A stretch of DNA of 43,664 nucleotides from Escherichia phage Fraca: sequence record LR597645. One strand, given 5' to 3'. The notes under the pieces are model-generated. The model was given only the letters and a program-made list of their open reading frames with translations, made no database searches and was not told where the DNA came from. Position numbers and translations under genes: made by a program. Positions within the stretch are counted from its first letter, which is position 1; each line of letters begins with the position of its first letter. Positions 3,729-29,678 of this stretch are shown piece by piece.

Positions 3729-4577
3729 ATGAGCAAAAAACAACTTCCGGTAGCACCGGCGGGTCGCCCCTGCGCGCGCGTTACCTGTGAAACATTACCG
3801 TCCGCACTGGACCGCTGGGACGGCGGGATCAAAGCGGCGGCCACCGACGATAACAGTATTTCTGTTTTTGATGTTATCGGGCAGGACTACTGGGGCGAAG
3901 GGGTAACAGCTAAACGTATTGCTGGTGCGCTTCGGGCTATGAACGGCGCCGACGTCACGGTGAATATCAACTCACCGGGCGGCGACATGTTCGAAGGTCT
4001 GGCTATTTATAACCTGCTCCGCGAATACGAAGGCCGTGTCACGGTGAAGGTGCTCGGTATTGCCGCCAGCGCCGCCTCGGTCATTGCGATGGCCGGGGAT
4101 GATATTCAGATCGGTCGTGGTGCCTTCCTGATGATCCACAACTGCTGGGTCTACGCGATGGGTAACCGCCATGATTTTGCTGAACTGGCACAGTCACTGG
4201 AACCCTTCGATACCGCTATGGCTGATATCTACGCGGCGCGCTCCGGCCTTGATATGGTAGCCGTTCAGAAACTGATGGACGCCGAGAGTTATATCGGTGG
4301 CAGTGACGCTGTGGCGAAGGGACTGGCAGACAGCCTGCTTTCTGCTGATGCGGTCAGCGACGGCGACGAATCGCCTGCAGCCGCGCTTCGCAAACTTGAT
4401 GCATTGCTGGCTAAAACCAACACCCCGCGCTCTGAGCGCAGAAAACTCATTAAAGCCGTATCCGGTGGCATGCCTGGCGCTGTCACCACCCACGACGGTA
4501 CGCCGGGCGCTGCCGAAGATATCAAACCTGAAACCCTCAATTCACTTGAAAGCGCTCTTGCGGCGTTAGTCAAATAA
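3729..4577 (+). CDS. Prohead maturation protease (ClpP/S14-like)
   Basis: 282 aa with ClpP-like motifs NSPGGDMFEGLAIYN and GIAASAASVIAMAGD; between portal and capsid. Confidence 0.85.
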   Translation: MSKKQLPVAPAGRPCARVTCETLPSALDRWDGGIKAAATDDNSISVFDVIGQDYWGEGVTAKRIAGALRAMNGADVTVNINSPGGDMFEGLAIYNLLREYEGRVTVKVLGIAASAASVIAMAGDDIQIGRGAFLMIHNCWVYAMGNRHDFAELAQSLEPFDTAMADIYAARSGLDMVAVQKLMDAESYIGGSDAVAKGLADSLLSADAVSDGDESPAAALRKLDALLAKTNTPRSERRKLIKAVSGGMPGAVTTHDGTPGAAEDIKPETLNSLESALAALVK

Positions 4578-4586
4578 GGACCCTTT

Positions 4587-5807
4587 ATGTCTGAAGTAAA
4601 CGAAATTCTGAAAAAAGTCACTGCCAGCATTGAAGAGGCAACCGGCAAATTCAACGCGAAAGCAGAAGACGCACTCAAAGAGGCGCAGAAGTCAGGCAGG
4701 CTGTCAGAAGAAACAAAAGCTGCCGTTGATAAAATGGCTTCTGAGTTCAATGCGCTGCGTGAAGCTGAAAAAACCCTGAAGGCCGCAATGGGCGAACTGG
4801 AGCAACATGTTGCCCAGATGCCGCTGGCCAACGCTGCAAAGGTGATCGAGACCGTTGGCCAGACCGTCATCAGCAGCGAAGCACTGAAAGCATTCGCGGC
4901 AAGCGTGGAAGGCGGTAAGCGCGTCAGCGTACCGGTGAACGCCGCGCTTATTTCCACGGATGTCGTCACCGGCGTGGTTGAACCGCAGCGTCTGCCGGGT
5001 ATCGACACCGCACCGAAACAGCGCCTTTTCATCCGCGATCTGATCGCGCCTGGCCGCACCTCAGCACCGGCCATCTTCTGGGTGCAGCAAACCGGCTTCA
5101 CCAATGCGGCGAAAGTTGTGCCGGAAGGCACCGCCAAGCCGTACAGCGATATCCAGTTCGCCACGCAGATCACGCCGGTCACCACCATCGCGCACATGTT
5201 CAAGGCGTCCAAACAGATTCTGGATGACTTCGCGCAGCTGCAGTCCACTATCGACGCCGAGATGCGTTACGGACTGAAGTATGTGGAAGAACAGGAAATT
5301 CTCTTTGGCGACGGTACCGGTGCGCACCTGAAAGGCATCGTGCCGCAGGCCTCGGCGTACGATGCTGCGTTCGCCGTAGAACAACAGAACGGCATCGACG
5401 ATCTGCGCCTCGCAATGCTGCAGGCTCAGCTGGCACGCTTCCCGGCTTCCGGCCACGTCCTGCACTTCATCGACTGGGCGAAGATTGAACTCACCAAAGA
5501 CACGCTGGGCCGCTATATCCTGGCGAACCCAGCGGCCCTGACTGGTCCTACCCTTTGGGGCCTGCCGGTGGTAGCAACCGAAGCCGCAGCATTCCAGGGC
5601 AAGTTCCTGACCGGTGCATTCAACGCTGCGGCACAGCTGTTTGACCGTGAAGACGCCAACGTGGTGATCTCCACTGAGAACGCCGACGACTTTGAGAAAA
5701 ACATGATCTCGATTCGCTGCGAAGAGCGTCTGGCCCTGGCGGTGAAACGCCCTGAAGCGTTCATCTACGGCTCCTTCACTGCGCCTGCAGCAGGTGGCGG
5801 CGCGTAA
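4587..5807 (+). CDS. Major capsid protein (HK97-like fold)
   Basis: 406 aa following the protease; AAGGA RBS; N-terminal coiled-coil delta-like region typical of HK97-type capsid precursors. Confidence 0.8.
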   Translation: MSEVNEILKKVTASIEEATGKFNAKAEDALKEAQKSGRLSEETKAAVDKMASEFNALREAEKTLKAAMGELEQHVAQMPLANAAKVIETVGQTVISSEALKAFAASVEGGKRVSVPVNAALISTDVVTGVVEPQRLPGIDTAPKQRLFIRDLIAPGRTSAPAIFWVQQTGFTNAAKVVPEGTAKPYSDIQFATQITPVTTIAHMFKASKQILDDFAQLQSTIDAEMRYGLKYVEEQEILFGDGTGAHLKGIVPQASAYDAAFAVEQQNGIDDLRLAMLQAQLARFPASGHVLHFIDWAKIELTKDTLGRYILANPAALTGPTLWGLPVVATEAAAFQGKFLTGAFNAAAQLFDREDANVVISTENADDFEKNMISIRCEERLALAVKRPEAFIYGSFTAPAAGGGA

Positions 5808-22267: not shown

Positions 22268-23560
22268 CTACTGCGCTACTACCATGCTTTGGGGCAGTGA
22301 TGGGGCAGCGTGTGAAAGCGCCTGGTTGAGCAGAGCAACCTGCTCTCCACTCTTCTCTGACATCCACTTTCCATACACCTTGTAAACCATCTGTGCATCG
22401 GTATGTCCCATCTGAGTTGCTATAAAGTTCGGGTTAGCACCAGCCGATAATGACCAGCACGCATAGGTATGCCGTGACTGATAAGCGTTGCGGTAACGAA
22501 TACCGGCGCGCTTGATTATCGGAGCCCAAATTTTATTAATCGAATTAACCGCGTAGTGATATCCTGTGCGAGACCCACGTTTGACGCATTGAGGGCTGAA
22601 AACGAAAGTGCATGGATGTATGACTGACTGGCCATATTCCCGCAAATTCACTTCAACCTCATGCTGCCGGCCAAGGCGCGTCAGTTGGGCCTGATCCCTA
22701 AGGGCATCAATAGCTGGTTGTATGAGATAAATCACCCTGTCAGTGCCTGCCTCGGTTTTTGGCAGGGTGAACTCATACGTTTGGGTAAGGTTACGCTTAA
22801 CCGTAATGGTTCCCGCGGTGAGATCGATGTCTTCCCATGCAAGACCACATAATTCCCCATGCCTCATTCCGGTATAAACGGCGACGGTCCAGAGATTTCG
22901 CATCTGCTGGTGGCCGCATGCCTGAATGAACCTGATGAACTCGTCTGTAGTGAGTGGATCTGGTTCGTCTTTTGCCTTCCTGAGACGGTTAATTCCGCTA
23001 AACGGGTTTTCCTTTGCGTAGCCGTTATCAGCTCCAAACTGGAAGATCTCGGCCATCAGCATCATGTAATTATTCACCGTGGAAGACTTCCGGCCTTTTA
23101 CCTGTGTCCGGTGATCCTTCTTCATTACATGGAAGCCCGTCAGCAACTCCTTCCTTACATACAGCAAATCTTCAGTGGTAACCGCAGAAACCATTTTATT
23201 TTCGCCGATGCGCGGAAGCATGTTTTTTATGATGGATTCGTACCTACTCATGGTATTAGAGCTGATCTCCATTCTCTTCAGCTCTGACCATCTTTCGGTA
23301 AGCTCCAGCACAGTAATTTCCTTTCTATCCTGACCGAACCGGGCAAGGTTCGGTGAGTTTGGGAATTTTTCTGCATAGTTAAAATTCCCCATTCTTATCG
23401 CAAAACAAACCGAAGAACGCAGCTCGCCAGCTATCTTGCGATTTTTTGCAGTGTCAGGGACACCTAGGTTTTCCCTGACACGTTTACCTTTATACAGAAA
23501 CCAGATGCGGAGCGAACCGCCGTGGTTTTCGACGCCTGTCGGGTATGATGCATTAGCCAT
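22268..23560 (-). CDS. int: Tyrosine integrase
   Basis: ATG at 23560 with AGGAGGG RBS; C-terminal catalytic region with R...HxxR...Y (RHTYACWSL...MVYKVYGKW). Confidence 0.85.
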   Translation of the reverse strand: MANASYPTGVENHGGSLRIWFLYKGKRVRENLGVPDTAKNRKIAGELRSSVCFAIRMGNFNYAEKFPNSPNLARFGQDRKEITVLELTERWSELKRMEISSNTMSRYESIIKNMLPRIGENKMVSAVTTEDLLYVRKELLTGFHVMKKDHRTQVKGRKSSTVNNYMMLMAEIFQFGADNGYAKENPFSGINRLRKAKDEPDPLTTDEFIRFIQACGHQQMRNLWTVAVYTGMRHGELCGLAWEDIDLTAGTITVKRNLTQTYEFTLPKTEAGTDRVIYLIQPAIDALRDQAQLTRLGRQHEVEVNLREYGQSVIHPCTFVFSPQCVKRGSRTGYHYAVNSINKIWAPIIKRAGIRYRNAYQSRHTYACWSLSAGANPNFIATQMGHTDAQMVYKVYGKWMSEKSGEQVALLNQALSHAAPSLPQSMVVAQ

Positions 23561-23604
23561 TGATCCCTCCTGACGTCCAGGAGCGTGGACGAGTGTACTG
23601 CTTT

Positions 23605-23862
23605 TCATGCTGTCTTCGCACCTGGTTGATTTTTTTTCTGCGCCTCGATCCACAGATCAACGGCTTTCCTGTTGTACATGCATTCGCTCGAAGGCTTGGG
23701 ATTACCATCTGGTGAAATGTGCAGGTACTCGCGGCCCAGCATCCAGGATTCTTTTCTGGCGCGGGTGATGGTTCCGGGCTTGAGCCCGGTAACCGCAATC
23801 AGAACCTTTTCGCTAACCCAGTCATTCGGCACCAGAAGAACGATTTCAGCACTGGTTTGCAT
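23605..23862 (-). CDS. xis: Excisionase-like protein
   Basis: About 85 aa from ATG at 23862 with GGAGGA RBS; basic small protein immediately upstream of int. Confidence 0.6.
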   Translation of the reverse strand: MQTSAEIVLLVPNDWVSEKVLIAVTGLKPGTITRARKESWMLGREYLHISPDGNPKPSSECMYNRKAVDLWIEAQKKNQPGAKTA

Positions 23863-24219: not shown

Positions 24220-24963
24220 TTAACCCTCCCACCCAATCGCCTGGAACAGGCCCATTTTAGGGTGATACCAGCGGGTGCCGCGCGGTTCAGCTTCTGACAT
24301 CATCTGGCGAAACGCGGCCATAAACGGCTCCAGTTCGACGATAGCCCTACGTGACAAAAGCCCGTCTGGAGTCATAAATTCGTGCGTGTCTGTCGGGATG
24401 CGGTAGGCATTGACCAAATTCCGGCACTTGGCGTCACTCATTCCGCTTTTGGCTACCACCTGGCGGTAACCGACATATCCGGCGCGCATGGTCCCGCGTT
24501 TGATGTTCTCCACAGCTTCAGTGACCGTTTCGATCTGCTCTTCAACATGATTCAGGCGCTTCTGCTGGCGAACGGCATCGGCGGCCATTGCGGCGATCAT
24601 CTCGATTTCCGTCAGCGGCGCGCGAGTGCGGAAATAGCTGTTAACCAGCTCACGCTGAACCTGCCAGGCCAGATCGTCCGTGAGTGACTTCGCCACCATC
24701 AGATATCCAGATTCGAAAAGCACAATTCCAGAGGGCGCAAACTTAGAAAACACACCTTCTGGAAGGTCCCGGCGTATAACGTCGGAACCTAATTCAACGT
24801 AATCGACCCCCTCGACAAAGTAGTTCCTGTTTTCACGAAAATTACGTCCTGCTGTTCCATCTGGTCGTTGGTGAGCTTCGTCAATCATTGCGAATGTCAC
24901 AACGCGCTGACCGCGATATTCGACTGCCGGCAGCTGTTTGTTATTGATCGTTACTGTGTTCAT
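24220..24963 (-). CDS. ORF6N-domain-like protein (antirepressor-related family)
   Basis: 247 aa; N-terminal region resembles ORF6N-type phage proteins; family assignment from memory only. Confidence 0.5.
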   Translation of the reverse strand: MNTVTINNKQLPAVEYRGQRVVTFAMIDEAHQRPDGTAGRNFRENRNYFVEGVDYVELGSDVIRRDLPEGVFSKFAPSGIVLFESGYLMVAKSLTDDLAWQVQRELVNSYFRTRAPLTEIEMIAAMAADAVRQQKRLNHVEEQIETVTEAVENIKRGTMRAGYVGYRQVVAKSGMSDAKCRNLVNAYRIPTDTHEFMTPDGLLSRRAIVELEPFMAAFRQMMSEAEPRGTRWYHPKMGLFQAIGWEG

Positions 24964-25008
24964 GCTCGATATCCTTCTGAGTGCCCGGCTTTACGCCGGG
25001 CTGGTGAA

Positions 25009-25836
25009 TCACTTAACCTGGATAAATGGAGTATTGGCGCCGCTGGTCATGTACTGGGGCAGAGTGCCGTTCCATTTGTTGATGGCCTCCAGTTGAAGCA
25101 CTTCAGGGTTTTCGCGCATGGCCTGCCCACGAATCTGGATAGACTTCGCTTCCGCTTCCGCCAGCTTCAACTTTGCGTCTGCCTGGCCATCTGCTTCAGC
25201 GCGCAGCATGTTTGCTTCGGCTTCACGCTGTTTCACTTCTTGCTCGCGCTGCAGGGTCTTCTGGTTGGCGGTGACTTTGGCGTTGATGCTGTCGATAACA
25301 GTCGGCGGGTACTCCGGACGGCCGACGTAAGAAAGGCTGATAACCTGGATTCCTACCGGACCCATGTCGGACTGAATCTCTTTCAGAGCATTTTCAAGCA
25401 GTTCAGCTTTCCCGCCGTCAATGAACTTATCGGTGCTCATGCGGCTTGCGAGACGATTAAGGGCATCGGCAATCTTTTGGCGCAAATCGGTGTCGGTGAT
25501 GTCGTCCACGCCTTTCCGATAGGTCTGAAACACCGTCGTCACTTTGGTCGGATCAACTTTATAGGCGACGCCGATGTGATAGCCGATGGTTGTGCCGTCA
25601 CTCATCTGGAAGTTGAAAGCGTCGTCGTAGGTTTTCATCTGTTTGAAGGTCGGGAAGATGTAAACCTCTGTGTTCCAGCCAGTCCAATAGCGGCCAACGC
25701 CTACCACTTCGCCAACGCCTTTATCGTCACCCAGCTTGTTGACCTTAATCCCAACGTTGCCAGGCTCAACACGATCACAACCAACGAGACCGACGGCAGA
25801 AAGCGCGATAATTGAAGCCATAATTGCTTTTTTCAT
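25009..25836 (-). CDS. SPFH (band 7 / prohibitin-like) domain lipoprotein
   Basis: 275 aa; signal peptide with lipobox LVGC; SPFH-like core and C-terminal Ala/Glu-rich coiled coil; start overlaps upstream stop (ATGA). Confidence 0.7.
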   Translation of the reverse strand: MKKAIMASIIALSAVGLVGCDRVEPGNVGIKVNKLGDDKGVGEVVGVGRYWTGWNTEVYIFPTFKQMKTYDDAFNFQMSDGTTIGYHIGVAYKVDPTKVTTVFQTYRKGVDDITDTDLRQKIADALNRLASRMSTDKFIDGGKAELLENALKEIQSDMGPVGIQVISLSYVGRPEYPPTVIDSINAKVTANQKTLQREQEVKQREAEANMLRAEADGQADAKLKLAEAEAKSIQIRGQAMRENPEVLQLEAINKWNGTLPQYMTSGANTPFIQVK

Positions 25837-26027
25837 TTTTTTTCCTTAGTTACGGTTACAACAAGACCCTTACAGATGACGTAGATGCACGGCGGGGTCA
25901 GAATCGCCAGGGCAAAACCGGATATAACTGCTGTTGTGTCCTTCATCGAAATGAGGATCGGAACGAACAGCCCATAAACGCTGGCGACAATCACCACCGA
26001 TAGAACAACGCGTAAGTAAGCAATCAT
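25833..26027 (-). CDS. Small two-TM membrane protein coupled to the SPFH gene
   Basis: About 64 aa from ATG at 26027; two hydrophobic segments; ATGA overlaps on both sides. Confidence 0.55.
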   Translation of the reverse strand: MIAYLRVVLSVVIVASVYGLFVPILISMKDTTAVISGFALAILTPPCIYVICKGLVVTVTKEKK

Positions 26028-26434
26028 CAGTTGATCCCTTCTGGTTTGCTGGCCTGGAGCTCCGCTTGCTCTTTCACGTAGCGGTCGTGCATGGAGTCCC
26101 ATTTCGCCAGCCACTTACGTGCTTCGCGCTTGCGTTCCAGAATTCGCCGAATGCGCCGCATACAGCGGTTGTGTGCAAAGAGATATTGCTGAGTGTGCTG
26201 GCCCATTCGATTGACGAGCACACCGTTGCTGAACACAGGCTCGTCTGGTTCGTTGGTATTCAAACCGGCCCGGCGAAATGTTTTGGTTACCATGTAGTGA
26301 GCCAGGTTGCTGATCGCCGCACTTCTGCTGAGGAAACGGCGCGAGTAACCGTGCCTCGATACGACATAAACTGGCTGCAACTCCGTAGTAAACGCTCTGT
26401 CGATTGAGGTGGTAGTAATGCGTTTATCGTTCAT
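26027..26434 (-). CDS. Hypothetical basic protein
   Basis: 135 aa; ATGA overlap with upstream and downstream genes. Confidence 0.5.
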   Translation of the reverse strand: MNDKRITTTSIDRAFTTELQPVYVVSRHGYSRRFLSRSAAISNLAHYMVTKTFRRAGLNTNEPDEPVFSNGVLVNRMGQHTQQYLFAHNRCMRRIRRILERKREARKWLAKWDSMHDRYVKEQAELQASKPEGIN

Positions 26435-26652
26435 TTGCGGTCCTTAACTTTGTTGTATCGTTCATGACTCATAACTTCCCAGTTCTGGCCTCCATCTCGT
26501 GAAAGCAGCCTCCAACGCAGGTTCACTTTTAGGCTGAGGTATCCAGTCCTGCGCATTCGCCGCGGTGAAATCCGCTGCTGCCGGAATTGCAGGAGAATTT
26601 TCACTGCCTGAAAGTGAACCCACTCAGGAATTCGTATCGCTGTCAGCGCCAT
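26431..26652 (-). CDS. Hypothetical small protein
   Basis: 73 aa; ATGA overlaps at both ends. Confidence 0.45.
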   Translation of the reverse strand: MALTAIRIPEWVHFQAVKILLQFRQQRISPRRMRRTGYLSLKVNLRWRLLSRDGGQNWEVMSHERYNKVKDRK

Positions 26653-27059
26653 CAGATCCGGGCCTCCACTTTTTGTTTTTTGACGAACTCAACCAGCTCA
26701 GAAATGAGCTCGTCGATTAATTCCTTTCCGCTATCTGTGAGGAATTCACCGCTGCCATTAACATCAACAGAGCTGCTGTAAATTCCCTTAATAGCTTTTA
26801 CGCCTTCGACATTCCCGTACTCACTAATCGCGAGCCTTTCGAATTTTCGTAATAATCCATCGAGAAGAATCTCTGTTAACTCGACCGTGTTAATACCGCC
26901 TTTATTGAGCTTAATAACAAGGCAGTTACTGCCCGTTTTACGCTGGTGGCGTAATAACGCTGCCTTTAAAATTCGGCGGCGGTAGGTTTCAATTACGTTG
27001 TTTTTCACGACGTTCAAACTCCGAATCCATCCACATTGAGACCTGAGCCGACAAGTCAA
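26652..27059 (-). CDS. Hypothetical protein (start uncertain)
   Basis: 135 aa track ORF with no internal Met; overlaps 26989-27192, so the true start may be a GTG/TTG near 27008. Confidence 0.4.
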   Translation of the reverse strand: MTCRLRSQCGWIRSLNVVKNNVIETYRRRILKAALLRHQRKTGSNCLVIKLNKGGINTVELTEILLDGLLRKFERLAISEYGNVEGVKAIKGIYSSSVDVNGSGEFLTDSGKELIDELISELVEFVKKQKVEARI

Positions 27060-27192
27060 GGCAGAGGCCAGACAGAGAAATTATGTGCTCGATATCCATA
27101 TCAATAATATTGGAGTTAATTAATTCCATTAATTGATACAGGTTATCTGCTGTGTTTTTTGCGGTTTCTAGAGAGCTGTCTTTACTGAGCAT
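26989..27192 (-). CDS. Hypothetical small acidic protein
   Basis: 67 aa from ATG at 27192. Confidence 0.4.
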   Translation of the reverse strand: MLSKDSSLETAKNTADNLYQLMELINSNIIDMDIEHIISLSGLCLDLSAQVSMWMDSEFERREKQRN

Positions 27193-27384
27193 ATTCAGAC
27201 CCCGTAAGCTTTGCGCATGAAAAGGTTAGAGATATGGCGGTATTCCTCACCATAGGTCGCGAAGAAAAGCCGTGCTGTTAAATACGCAGATTTATCTTTG
27301 ATGAATGTCATTTTTAACCTAATCCTGTTTTCAGGTTGCAGGAAGCCACACCAGTGAAGGTGTTATTTGTTTTATTATTTAGCG

Positions 27385-28029: not shown

Positions 28030-28140
28030 TTGATAGAATGATGATAGAGCCTGCTATTGGTATTTGCAATAGATATTGCTATTTAAAATGCTATTGATTT
28101 TTATGTCTTTGATATCAAAAATAAAAAAAATCTATTGCTG
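28030..28140. promoter_or_regulatory. Putative OL/PL operator-promoter region
   Basis: Multiple CTATTG / CAATAG half-sites (28054-28096, 28132-28138) and palindrome TTTGATATCAAA, mirroring the motifs right of cI. Confidence 0.55.
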
Positions 28141-28426
28141 ATGTGTTTGTAACAGCACGGTAGAAATAATTGTCCTTTAGACAGTGATCTACCAATACAT
28201 GAGATATCGGGAGTTGGAGCATCGAAGCTTGAGAATTAAATGGACTGTGAAAGGGCGAGATACTCGCAGAGAGCAAGAGGGTAGGGTAGGAGTTCCGATC
28301 AGGTAGTCGCCCGCCTGGTTGACTGGTGGTTACTATTGTGGGGGCACATAGAAAACCCGACGCACTGGCCGGGTTAAGAATCCATTCAGCTTGTTATGCG
28401 TAAGTTTTTATTTTAATTTGCATTAT

Positions 28427-29134
28427 TCACCCATGCTTCCTGTAGGTCTGCGGCATGCTGCCGATCACCTTTCCGAAGATGAAAATTTTGTTCATCTCTT
28501 CCTTCTCGATTGGTTCCCATGGTAGATAGGTATGGTTGTCAGAGATAACTAAGAGTTTGTCTTTCATCTTTTGTAAGCGCTTAACATGCGATGTGTCATC
28601 GTAGATGAACGCGTATATACCGTCGCCGTCGAAATGCTGAACGCTGATATCGACGAAGAGTAAGTCCCCTGGCTCTATGGTGCCAGACATGCTATCACCT
28701 CGAACGTTGATGATGCGTATCTGCTCCTGTTTCCGGCCATTAAACATTTGACGGGCATCTTCAACTGAGTATTCCACGGAGCGCAGCACCTCCACGAATT
28801 CGCTGTTAATTATGCCCGGGCCAGCACTTACGGTAAGGTCGAGTACGTCAACTCTGAAGATGGCTGGATCTTTTTTGTTATTCATCGGTGGGGGTGGTTG
28901 TTGGTCGTCACCCCTCATTGGTCCAGTACCGTTTGATAGCCACTCCGAACGAACACCCAGGGCATTAGCTATTTCAACGATTTTGGTTGTGCCTCTAGCA
29001 TTTCCAGATGTTATTCGCCATATGGTTGGTTGTGCCATATTCGCCGCTTTGGCTAACTGACCCTGGCTCATGCCCATCTCATGCATTGCGTAGTTAAGTC
29101 TGTCAGCTAGCGTCTTAAGTGTTCTCTCTTGCAT
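28427..29134 (-). CDS. cI: CI-like repressor (HTH plus S24 LexA-like peptidase domain)
   Basis: ATG at 29134 with GGAGG RBS; N-terminal HTH; C-terminal GDSM...K catalytic dyad motif. Confidence 0.85.
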   Translation of the reverse strand: MQERTLKTLADRLNYAMHEMGMSQGQLAKAANMAQPTIWRITSGNARGTTKIVEIANALGVRSEWLSNGTGPMRGDDQQPPPPMNNKKDPAIFRVDVLDLTVSAGPGIINSEFVEVLRSVEYSVEDARQMFNGRKQEQIRIINVRGDSMSGTIEPGDLLFVDISVQHFDGDGIYAFIYDDTSHVKRLQKMKDKLLVISDNHTYLPWEPIEKEEMNKIFIFGKVIGSMPQTYRKHG

Positions 29135-29179
29135 ATTTATAGCCTCCGCTATCACATTCTAGTCAAGCATGATAAACAA

Positions 29180-29248: not shown

Positions 29249-29467
29249 ATGAAATCAGCAATTGAAAGAGCTATTGATGCTGCTGGAGGAGTAAATGCTC
29301 TAGCTCGCGCTATAGGTGTAAAACAACCCTCTGTCTCTCGCTGGAGAAAGGTTGGTGTTGTTGGGGTGGAACATGTGCCTGATGTTGCGGCCTTTACTGG
29401 GATTCCCGCCCATGAACTGAGACCTGACAAACCAAAATTATTCCCTCACCCGGGCAATGAGGTGTGA
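29249..29467 (+). CDS. cro: Cro-like HTH regulator
   Basis: 72 aa divergent from cI across the operator cluster; HTH region GGVNALARAIGVKQPSVSRW. Confidence 0.7.
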   Translation: MKSAIERAIDAAGGVNALARAIGVKQPSVSRWRKVGVVGVEHVPDVAAFTGIPAHELRPDKPKLFPHPGNEV

Positions 29468-29468
29468 C

Positions 29469-29678
29469 ATGTCACACCCAATCACTACCGAAAACCAAAT
29501 TAAGCCATTGGATATCGATTATCGCGATCCGCGCGGTGTGATTGTGCATGTCACCGGCTGGAATCGGGATAAACAGCAGGTGTATTTCACCAGACAGAAT
29601 TATCCGCATGAATGCATGCAGCCTGTCTGGAAGTTCCAACAATATTTTACGAAGGTCTCGGAGGCGCAAAATGCGTGA
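29469..29678 (+). CDS. Hypothetical protein (cII position)
   Basis: 69 aa; ATG at 29469 with GAGGTG RBS, 2 nt after the cro stop. Confidence 0.45.
   Translation: MSHPITTENQIKPLDIDYRDPRGVIVHVTGWNRDKQQVYFTRQNYPHECMQPVWKFQQYFTKVSEAQNA

Follow-up and report, generated by a model that had tools for sequence, protein, structure and literature searches.

A conserved membrane-protein and SPFH-lipoprotein gene pair in a putatively mosaic early operon of Escherichia phage Fraca

Does a run of phage genes that overlap stop to start encode proteins that act as one unit? Escherichia phage Fraca (sequence record LR597645) raises this question with five small minus-strand genes, the last of which encodes a lipoprotein with an SPFH (band 7) domain. 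We analyzed a stretch of 43,664 nucleotides of this phage, hereafter the window. An original prediction, made from the sequence alone, had described the five genes as a translationally coupled early operon and had taken their tight overlaps to imply stoichiometric co-function. The genes are numbered here along the minus strand, with g5 the first, followed by g4, g3 and g2, and g1 the last. Stoichiometric co-function of all five was not borne out, since comparison of gene co-occurrence across ~180 related loci revealed at least three separately inherited units: g2 and g1 form one unit, the only firm one, g5 and g4 appear to form another, and g3 seems to be a frequent but dispensable neighbor of both. 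We favor, with a probability of about 0.6, a mosaic early operon of at least three modules, rather than a five-protein machine, which carries a membrane cassette and a toxin–antitoxin-like pair. The five genes are as follows.

26652-27008, minus strand: g5, 118 aa, PHROG 1737 (no function assigned), candidate antitoxin or partner
26431-26652, minus strand: g4, 73-aa ParE_like protein, isoelectric point (pI) 11.7, candidate toxin resembling the RelE/ParE superfamily
26027-26434, minus strand: g3, 135-aa very basic orphan protein, pI 10.6
25833-26027, minus strand: g2, 64-aa two-helix membrane hairpin by its hydropathy profile, with a basic C-terminus and KEKK tail
25009-25836, minus strand: g1, 275-aa SPFH/Band_7 lipoprotein with a signal peptide, a lipobox and the SPFH domain at residues 22-208

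Packing and inheritance of the five genes

The five genes do lie consecutively on the minus strand, their open reading frames (ORFs) extending from 25009 to about 27008. ATGA overlaps had been claimed at all four junctions. Those at 26432 and 25834 are present as 4-nt overlaps, while the junctions at 26652 and 26027 read TGATG and overlap by 1 nt. From upstream to downstream the junctions thus measure -1, -4, -1 and -4 nt, and the next junction, upstream of g5, measures -20 nt. The first gene had been started at TTG 27059. We corrected this to GTG 27008, since homologues begin MKNNVIETY, with ATG, at the corresponding position. The resulting 118-aa frame overlaps an upstream 67-aa gene by 20 nt, and a further small ORF precedes that gene.

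26989-27192, minus strand: 67-aa ORF, PHROG 8959 (E 1.2e-28), with homologues in related loci
27195-27311, minus strand: 38-aa ORF, ending 2 nt ahead of the 67-aa gene

Between 27311 and 25009, the compact chain thus comprises at least seven ORFs, bounded by gaps of 73 and 45 nt, with a separate Shine–Dalgarno-like motif at every start. In a crude gene call over the whole window, a 1- or 4-nt stop/start overlap is possible in 17 of 54 adjacent same-strand pairs, so that such packing is the norm here and marks no special unit. The genes carry the stop/start overlaps of a coupled operon, and coupling itself is predicted. The overlaps would reflect the compact packing typical of phage operons.

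We compared gene content in three samples. Sample (a) comprised 80 IMG/VR loci chosen by their SPFH protein (85-100% identity), sample (b) 80 loci chosen by g4, 70 of them with enough sequence, and sample (c) 17 more distant loci, namely 15 species-level genomes found with the SPFH profile and the phages P88 and Stx2_112808. Wherever upstream sequence is available, a small transmembrane gene precedes the SPFH gene, even in loci where SPFH identity falls to 45%. BLAST placed a g2 homologue directly upstream in 78 of the 80 loci of sample (a); of the remainder, L062 has a divergent g2 allele on inspection and one locus has no upstream sequence. In sample (c) the small transmembrane gene was found in 17 of 17. 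Similarly, g5 is located upstream of g4 in 80 of 80 loci of sample (b).

These pairs are inherited apart from each other. Among the 70 extended loci of sample (b), g3 is found downstream of g4 in 56, but the transmembrane and SPFH genes in only 11. Within sample (c), g4 is absent from all 17 loci, g5 is present in one and a relative of g3 in four. One or more of g3-g5 are missing from 17 of the 80 loci of sample (a), ten of which lack all three (one of these has no upstream sequence), and one further deficient locus reaches a contig end. The P2-like phage P88 and Stx2 phages contain the cassette without g3-g5. Conversely, phage CharmingMan has g3-g5 without the SPFH cassette and encodes a 193-aa protein in its place. 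This protein and other flanking or neighboring genes in relatives mostly matched no Pfam family, two of them having DUF5406 or a sub-threshold Ead_Ea22 match.

The nucleotide sequence is similarly patchy. The nearest deposited phages, the E. coli phages SaltyDalty, CharmingMan and LMessi and the Aeromonas phage AsXd-1, match only patchwise, and none of the phage or E. coli records searched covered 80% of the region. Megablast splits it into a left block at 24981-26104 (88% identity to Klebsiella prophages) and a right block at 26419-26995 (85-87% to LMessi and AsXd-1). The guanine plus cytosine content steps at the g5/g4 border (26652), from 39-44% between g5 and the start of the leftward operon to 47-54% between g4 and the antirepressor-like gene downstream of g1. 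The left block terminates within the 3' end of g3, a conserved segment common to otherwise divergent g3 alleles, which is a pattern expected of a recombination joint. In sample (a), identities range over 36-100% for g3, 56-100% for g4 and 32-98% for g5, and they can be strongly discordant within a single locus (for example SPFH 98%, g3 45%, g4 74% and g5 90%). Homologues of g3 are confined to Enterobacterales and all unnamed, and its reasonable AlphaFold2 model (predicted local distance difference test, pLDDT, 78.8) retrieved no related fold from the PDB or BFVD. We propose that recombination would have built this stretch of the operon out of three or more modules with separate inheritance, with the conserved 3' end of g3 serving as a joint between them.

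Could translational coupling nevertheless hold all five proteins in fixed ratios within one membrane-associated complex? Four consecutive stop/start overlaps are in keeping with this, as is the same five-gene order, with g3, g4 and g5 all present, in 63 of the 80 prophages of sample (a). However, these are closely related prophages and the shared order may be one of descent, the overlaps are common across the window and extend past the five genes, each gene has its own Shine–Dalgarno-like site, and the discordant identities and the separate occurrence of the pairs are hard to reconcile with a fixed complex. We consider this reading very improbable and, judging from gene co-occurrence, already largely refuted by the distribution; the five-gene arrangement appears to be a feature of one prophage lineage.

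The g2 and g1 cassette

The last gene of the chain had been described as an SPFH lipoprotein, and both parts of that description hold. The g1 protein scored 110.1 bits against Pfam PF01145 (cut-off 23.6, E 1.6e-31), spanning profile positions 2-176 of 176, and matched PHROG 200, 'lipoprotein', at E 1e-110. A total of 780 homologous clusters were found, the named ones being 'SPFH domain-containing protein'. The N-terminus, as read from the sequence, consists of MKK, a hydrophobic stretch and the lipobox LVGC.

25777-25788, minus strand: g1 lipobox codons L17-V18-G19-C20, followed by an Asp codon (D21, the +2 position)

Among 16 enterobacterial homologues (73-92% identity), G19 and C20 are invariant and the +2 residue is Asp in 14 and Glu in two. 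As the signature of an inner-membrane lipoprotein we used a lipobox of the form [LVI][ASTVI][GAS]C followed by Asp at +2, and g1 contains both. Asp at +2 is the inner-membrane retention signal for lipoproteins of Enterobacterales and, under this sorting rule, g1 is predicted to be retained at the inner membrane facing the periplasm. We infer that g1 is lipid-anchored at the periplasmic face of the inner membrane. Beyond the SPFH domain, g1 has a putative Ala/Glu-rich coiled-coil region at residues ~190-250 and a conserved C-terminal tail, KWNGTLPQYM..TPFIQVK.

More distant SPFH homologues differ in their anchors. Those of Sutterella (L176, L177) have an N-terminal transmembrane helix and no lipobox, and those of Xanthomonadales (L178 from Luteibacter, L179 from Dyella) have a lipobox with Ser at +2; the small transmembrane partner is kept in both groups. 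Because the distant homologues swap anchor type, the conserved element appears to be a periplasm-side membrane anchor and not the lipid itself.

The small two-helix protein was also confirmed, with two hydrophobic helices in the 64 residues of g2 and a match to PHROG 1130, 'membrane protein' (E 1.6e-27). Alignment of 11 diverse g2 partners revealed invariant P23, S27 and G37, with the motif P-x-L-I-S at the end of helix 1. Neither g2 nor 10 diverse homologues matched NfeD, which is commonly the companion of SPFH proteins, even at E<=1, and g2 matched no other Pfam family. We also considered a class II holin-like protein, and rejected this on the grounds of the early-operon position and the constant pairing with SPFH.

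The pair is conserved at 73% identity or more across Enterobacterales, and extends to relatives at 45-52% identity in Chimaeribacter, Sutterella, Luteibacter and Dyella. Its enterobacterial carriers include lambdoid prophages of Klebsiella, Enterobacter, E. coli and Salmonella, Stx2 phages, and P88, where it is situated inside the early cox-to-A operon. In contigs from Yersinia pestis, Kluyvera and Buttiauxella the cassette lies beside genes for a RecA-like protein, a 5'-3' exonuclease and a Rep3 initiator; the exonuclease and the plasmid initiator suggest that these are phage-plasmids. In Dyella it adjoins an RdgC gene. Thus, g2 and g1 form a mobile cassette that is always found in early regions, with recombination or replication genes as neighbors. 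Two chromosomal loci, from Shigella flexneri and E. coli, are interrupted by an IS1 element exactly at the border of the transmembrane and SPFH genes, with both ORFs left intact (L168, 5234-6000, and L169); an Rfam scan of the cassette-splitting insertion in Shigella returned no match.

As a side observation, the RecA-like gene upstream of the cassette in Kluyvera sp. STS39-E (L173, 3363-5705) carries an intein in its P-loop, composed of Intein_splicing and a LAGLIDADG_3 homing endonuclease. An uninterrupted 358-aa allele is present in Yersinia pestis, Kluyvera sichuanensis and Buttiauxella (L171, L172 and L174, ~4630-5706).

No sigma-70-like promoter was found before g2, the regional count equaling the shuffle expectation, and no terminator after g1. 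The cassette thus lacks the promoter and terminator of its own that define a 'moron', which suggests that it is expressed with the early operon.

The g5 and g4 pair and the surrounding operon

It had been stated that the three upstream proteins have no recognizable motif. This is incorrect for g4, which matched Pfam PF24732, ParE_like ('ParE-like toxin domain'), with 75.5 bits (cut-off 24.4). An exhaustive HMMER search with g4 gathered 61 cluster representatives, mostly of 60-90 aa, and all 45 aligned relatives matched ParE_like and nothing else. The family shares WRLLS...W.LMSHE.YN, in which R48 is invariant and H63 and Y66 are nearly so. Alignment with hhalign to single toxin sequences gave weak scores in the expected register for HigB (P 0.0028) and YoeB (P 0.032), relative to controls at 0.3-0.5.

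The upstream protein, g5, has a basic N-terminus (+8.6) and an acidic C-terminal helix. In-frame g5-g4 fusions occur in relatives as single ORFs of 191-200 aa (P0178, P0183 and P0184). A Foldseek search with the model of P0178 placed GraT, HigB, YafQ or YoeB/ParE in nine of the top 20 hits, all of them non-significant (E>=0.14). Thus, the pair resembles the RelE/ParE type II toxin–antitoxin systems (HigBA, GraTA, DinJ–YafQ and ParDE) in its small, very basic ParE_like member, in the overlap of g5 with the start of g4, in the acidic helix and in the constant co-occurrence. With moderate to low confidence, we consider g5 and g4 a candidate toxin–antitoxin-like pair, in which g5 would neutralize g4 via its acidic C-terminal helix.

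The wider layout of the window is that of a temperate siphovirus genome, with structural genes on the plus strand up to ~21.5 kb. The features that surround the five genes are listed below.

22268-23653, minus strand: integrase, followed by a DUF1233 excisionase, also on the minus strand
24220-24963, minus strand: ORF6N/anti-repressor-like gene directly downstream of g1, PHROG 1726 (E 8e-67)
24983-25001, minus strand: GC-rich 7-bp hairpin with a GUAAA loop, just past the g1 stop, in the 45-nt gap before the ORF6N gene
28041-28069, minus strand: promoter-like site, ~300 nt beyond the cI hairpin, preceding the leftward block
28354-28375, minus strand: strong terminator-like hairpin with a T-run, just downstream of cI
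28427-29155: S24/HTH cI-like repressor, at the end of the leftward small-gene block

A Cro/YdaS-like gene and replication genes run rightward beyond the cI-like repressor. The early-left placement that had been proposed for the five genes is reasonable, since they lie between the cI-like repressor and the excisionase and integrase genes, and a location within a leftward early operon is plausible. The hairpin at 28354-28375 and the site at 28041-28069 may mark the end of the immunity transcript and the leftward early promoter, respectively. The 51-nt spacer after g1 folds as RNA at -18.7 kcal/mol; its hairpin has no U-tract and was not called an intrinsic terminator, and it may act in RNA stability or processing or coincide with a mosaic boundary.

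Two side observations concern the neighbors. The Cro-like gene beside cI (29249-29678, plus strand) matched Pfam YdaS_toxin (E 4.5e-12) better than P22_Cro, and a DUF4222 protein is encoded after it. The slot of the ORF6N gene is variable in relatives, where it is occupied by the transmembrane and SPFH cassette or an unrelated 193-aa protein, or is empty.

Besides the gene order shared by the 63 prophages, several results weigh against parts of the mosaic reading and of the roles that it assigns. In the window's closest lineage the five genes could still be functionally linked, and the early timing is deduced from position. For the toxin–antitoxin-like pair, neither the single g4 sequence nor its 45-sequence profile retrieved a solved toxin from the PDB sequences, and no significant sequence or fold match to one was obtained for this protein of only 73 aa. 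The P0178 model is poor (pLDDT 45.9 overall, 54-70 in the g4 part), and g5 matched no Pfam family and no recognized antitoxin or DNA-binding family. Many relatives have an extra gene of ~84 aa between g5 and g4 (MNNQQTMLFQGMQIPRPVLNVDL..., L086 ~3778-4029), which is missing at the 26652 junction; the window's lineage has lost it. For the cassette, the nearest solved relatives of g1 among PDB sequences, HflK, HflC and prohibitin-2, are weak matches (E 3e-4 to 1e-3), and residues 197-254 align, again weakly, to a prohibitin-2 coiled-coil fragment (6iqe, E 1.2e-3) and to part of the HflK/HflC coiled coil. The HflK/HflC equivalog thresholds of NCBIfam were missed by far, with 26.5 against 134.4 bits for TIGR01932 (hflC), 23.6 against 427 for NF008259 and 16 against 660 for NF008181 (hflK), and therefore g1 is no HflK/C orthologue.

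Possible functions of the cassette and comparison with known systems

What might the cassette do within a mosaic operon? SPFH proteins that oligomerize include HflK/C, prohibitins and stomatins, and g1 would similarly build a ring or cage, with its putative C-terminal coiled coil as the oligomerization element. With its conserved P-x-L-I-S end, g2 would be the membrane-embedded partner of g1. By analogy, we infer a ring or cage of g1 on the periplasmic leaflet with g2 embedded in the membrane. The cassette may act on a conserved host inner-membrane component in early development, rather than as an exclusion factor against other phages. SPFH assemblies are recurrently tied to membrane proteases, as for HflK/C–FtsH, prohibitin–m-AAA and stomatin–NfeD. 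These ties, together with the high conservation across hosts and phage types and with HflK/C being the closest relative, favor a conserved host target. As a tentative candidate, which we regard as possible rather than probable, this target may be an FtsH-type membrane quality-control protease, affected through an HflKC-like enclosure or competition. A more specific form of the idea, and a less likely one, is that the cassette is a portable viral mimic of the HflKC cage that encloses or competes for FtsH, or another conserved inner-membrane complex, from the periplasm. If this were true, unrelated temperate phages would reprogram membrane proteolysis early in development, and would encode an SPFH nanocompartment with a non-NfeD partner.

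A link of the cassette to the lysis–lysogeny decision, by analogy with the FtsH-mediated turnover of CII in lambda, had been suggested. P2-like phages and phage-plasmids are not expected to use a lambda-type CII circuit, and the presence of the cassette in P88 and in phage-plasmid-like elements argues against a role tied to that circuit. Furthermore, none of the immunity-region ORFs tested matched a Phage_CII or CIII family, and no CII-like gene was recognizable. The lambda-specific version is weakened by these absences and by the non-lambdoid carriers.

Exclusion or abortive infection had also been suggested. Acting in lytic growth or from the prophage, the cassette would then be a superinfection-exclusion or defense module that blocks DNA entry by other phages. 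Its predicted periplasm-facing position at the inner membrane is suitable, like accessory genes it passes between temperate phages of unrelated types, and phage lipoproteins or small inner-membrane proteins are known to exclude other phages (Cor, Llp, Ltp, Imm, SieA and HK97 gp15). However, none of the five proteins matched PADLOC-DB at E<=0.01, nor did the neighboring genes, and a full-text literature search returned no report of exclusion by the cassette. The missing promoter and terminator make prophage expression doubtful, and conservation of at least 73% across hosts is unlike that of arms-race proteins. We consider an exclusion role unlikely.

Less likely again is a membrane-stabilizing scaffold that would preserve the integrity and energization of the inner membrane while the phage develops, with an effect like that of flotillins or PspA and without a specific protease as its target. 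Membership of the SPFH family and the early-operon placement across phage types are consistent with a scaffold, and the high conservation would suit a generic host feature as its target, but the characterized periplasm-facing SPFH proteins, HflK/C, work with a protease.

A precedent for a role in lysogenic conversion is PM0222 (Pmorf0222), an HflK/C-like protein of 25-35 kDa encoded by a lambda-like prophage of Pasteurella multocida, which is found in outer-membrane vesicles and signals through Toll-like receptors 1 and 2 (TLR1/2), and the deletion of which attenuates virulence (PMC9872710). By description it is like g1 in being a prophage-encoded SPFH protein of similar size, and TLR1/2 agonism fits a lipoprotein; it differs in having been studied as a virulence factor only and not in phage biology (PMC9872710). 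That g1 is likewise a virulence factor, a triacylated surface or vesicle antigen, is very doubtful, since the likeness is one of description, Asp at +2 predicts inner-membrane retention rather than surface exposure, the cassette has no independent promoter, and it also occurs in environmental Xanthomonadales and gut Sutterella.

We return to the mosaic operon with a membrane cassette that may be directed at a host component. The region is an ordinary mosaic early operon, and its one interesting element is the widespread and well-conserved transmembrane and SPFH cassette. The five genes should not be annotated as one unit, the units being g2 with g1 and, separately, g5 with g4. SPFH cages (HflK/C, prohibitins, stomatins and flotillins) attract structural interest at present, and for most bacterial members the role is unclear. 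The phage-borne version is compact and highly conserved, has a minimal partner, and is carried by hundreds of enterobacterial prophages, Stx phages among them. In a full-text literature search, no work on the phage biology of a phage SPFH protein came up, the paper on PM0222 virulence being the only relevant one, and the role of the cassette in phage biology appears unstudied. It offers a small, tractable system to explore what a periplasm-facing SPFH assembly does, and whether phages interfere with FtsH-type quality control in ways other than that of lambda CIII.

Comparison with known systems indicates both shared features and differences. The g5 and g4 pair departs from the RelE/ParE systems in the missing match of g4 to a solved toxin, in the missing antitoxin domain of g5 and in the extra gene that often separates the two. 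Lambda CIII, a small amphipathic peptide of the cytoplasm encoded in the PL operon, inhibits FtsH by competing as a substrate. The cassette shares with CIII its place in the operon and its timing, and could share its host target if the FtsH idea holds; the two are unrelated in sequence.

In the SPFH–NfeD operons (QmcA–YbbJ, YqiK–YqiJ and Pyrococcus PH1511–PH1510), the SPFH gene likewise overlaps or abuts a gene for a small membrane protein. However, g2 has neither an NfeD domain nor a soluble OB-fold part, and QmcA and YqiK face the cytoplasm, unlike g1, which as a predicted lipoprotein would be periplasmic.

The closest comparison is with HflK/HflC–FtsH of E. coli, in which an SPFH cage encloses a membrane AAA protease; its locus is known from lambda biology for 'high frequency of lysogenization'. 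As in HflK/HflC, the SPFH domain of g1 precedes a putative coiled coil and a conserved C-terminal tail, with a predicted location at the periplasmic face of the inner membrane, and these proteins provide the best, albeit weak, solved-structure matches in sequence (E about 3e-4). The N-terminal transmembrane helix of HflK/HflC is replaced in g1 by a predicted lipid anchor, and in place of the K/C pair the phage has a single SPFH gene together with a 64-aa hairpin partner.

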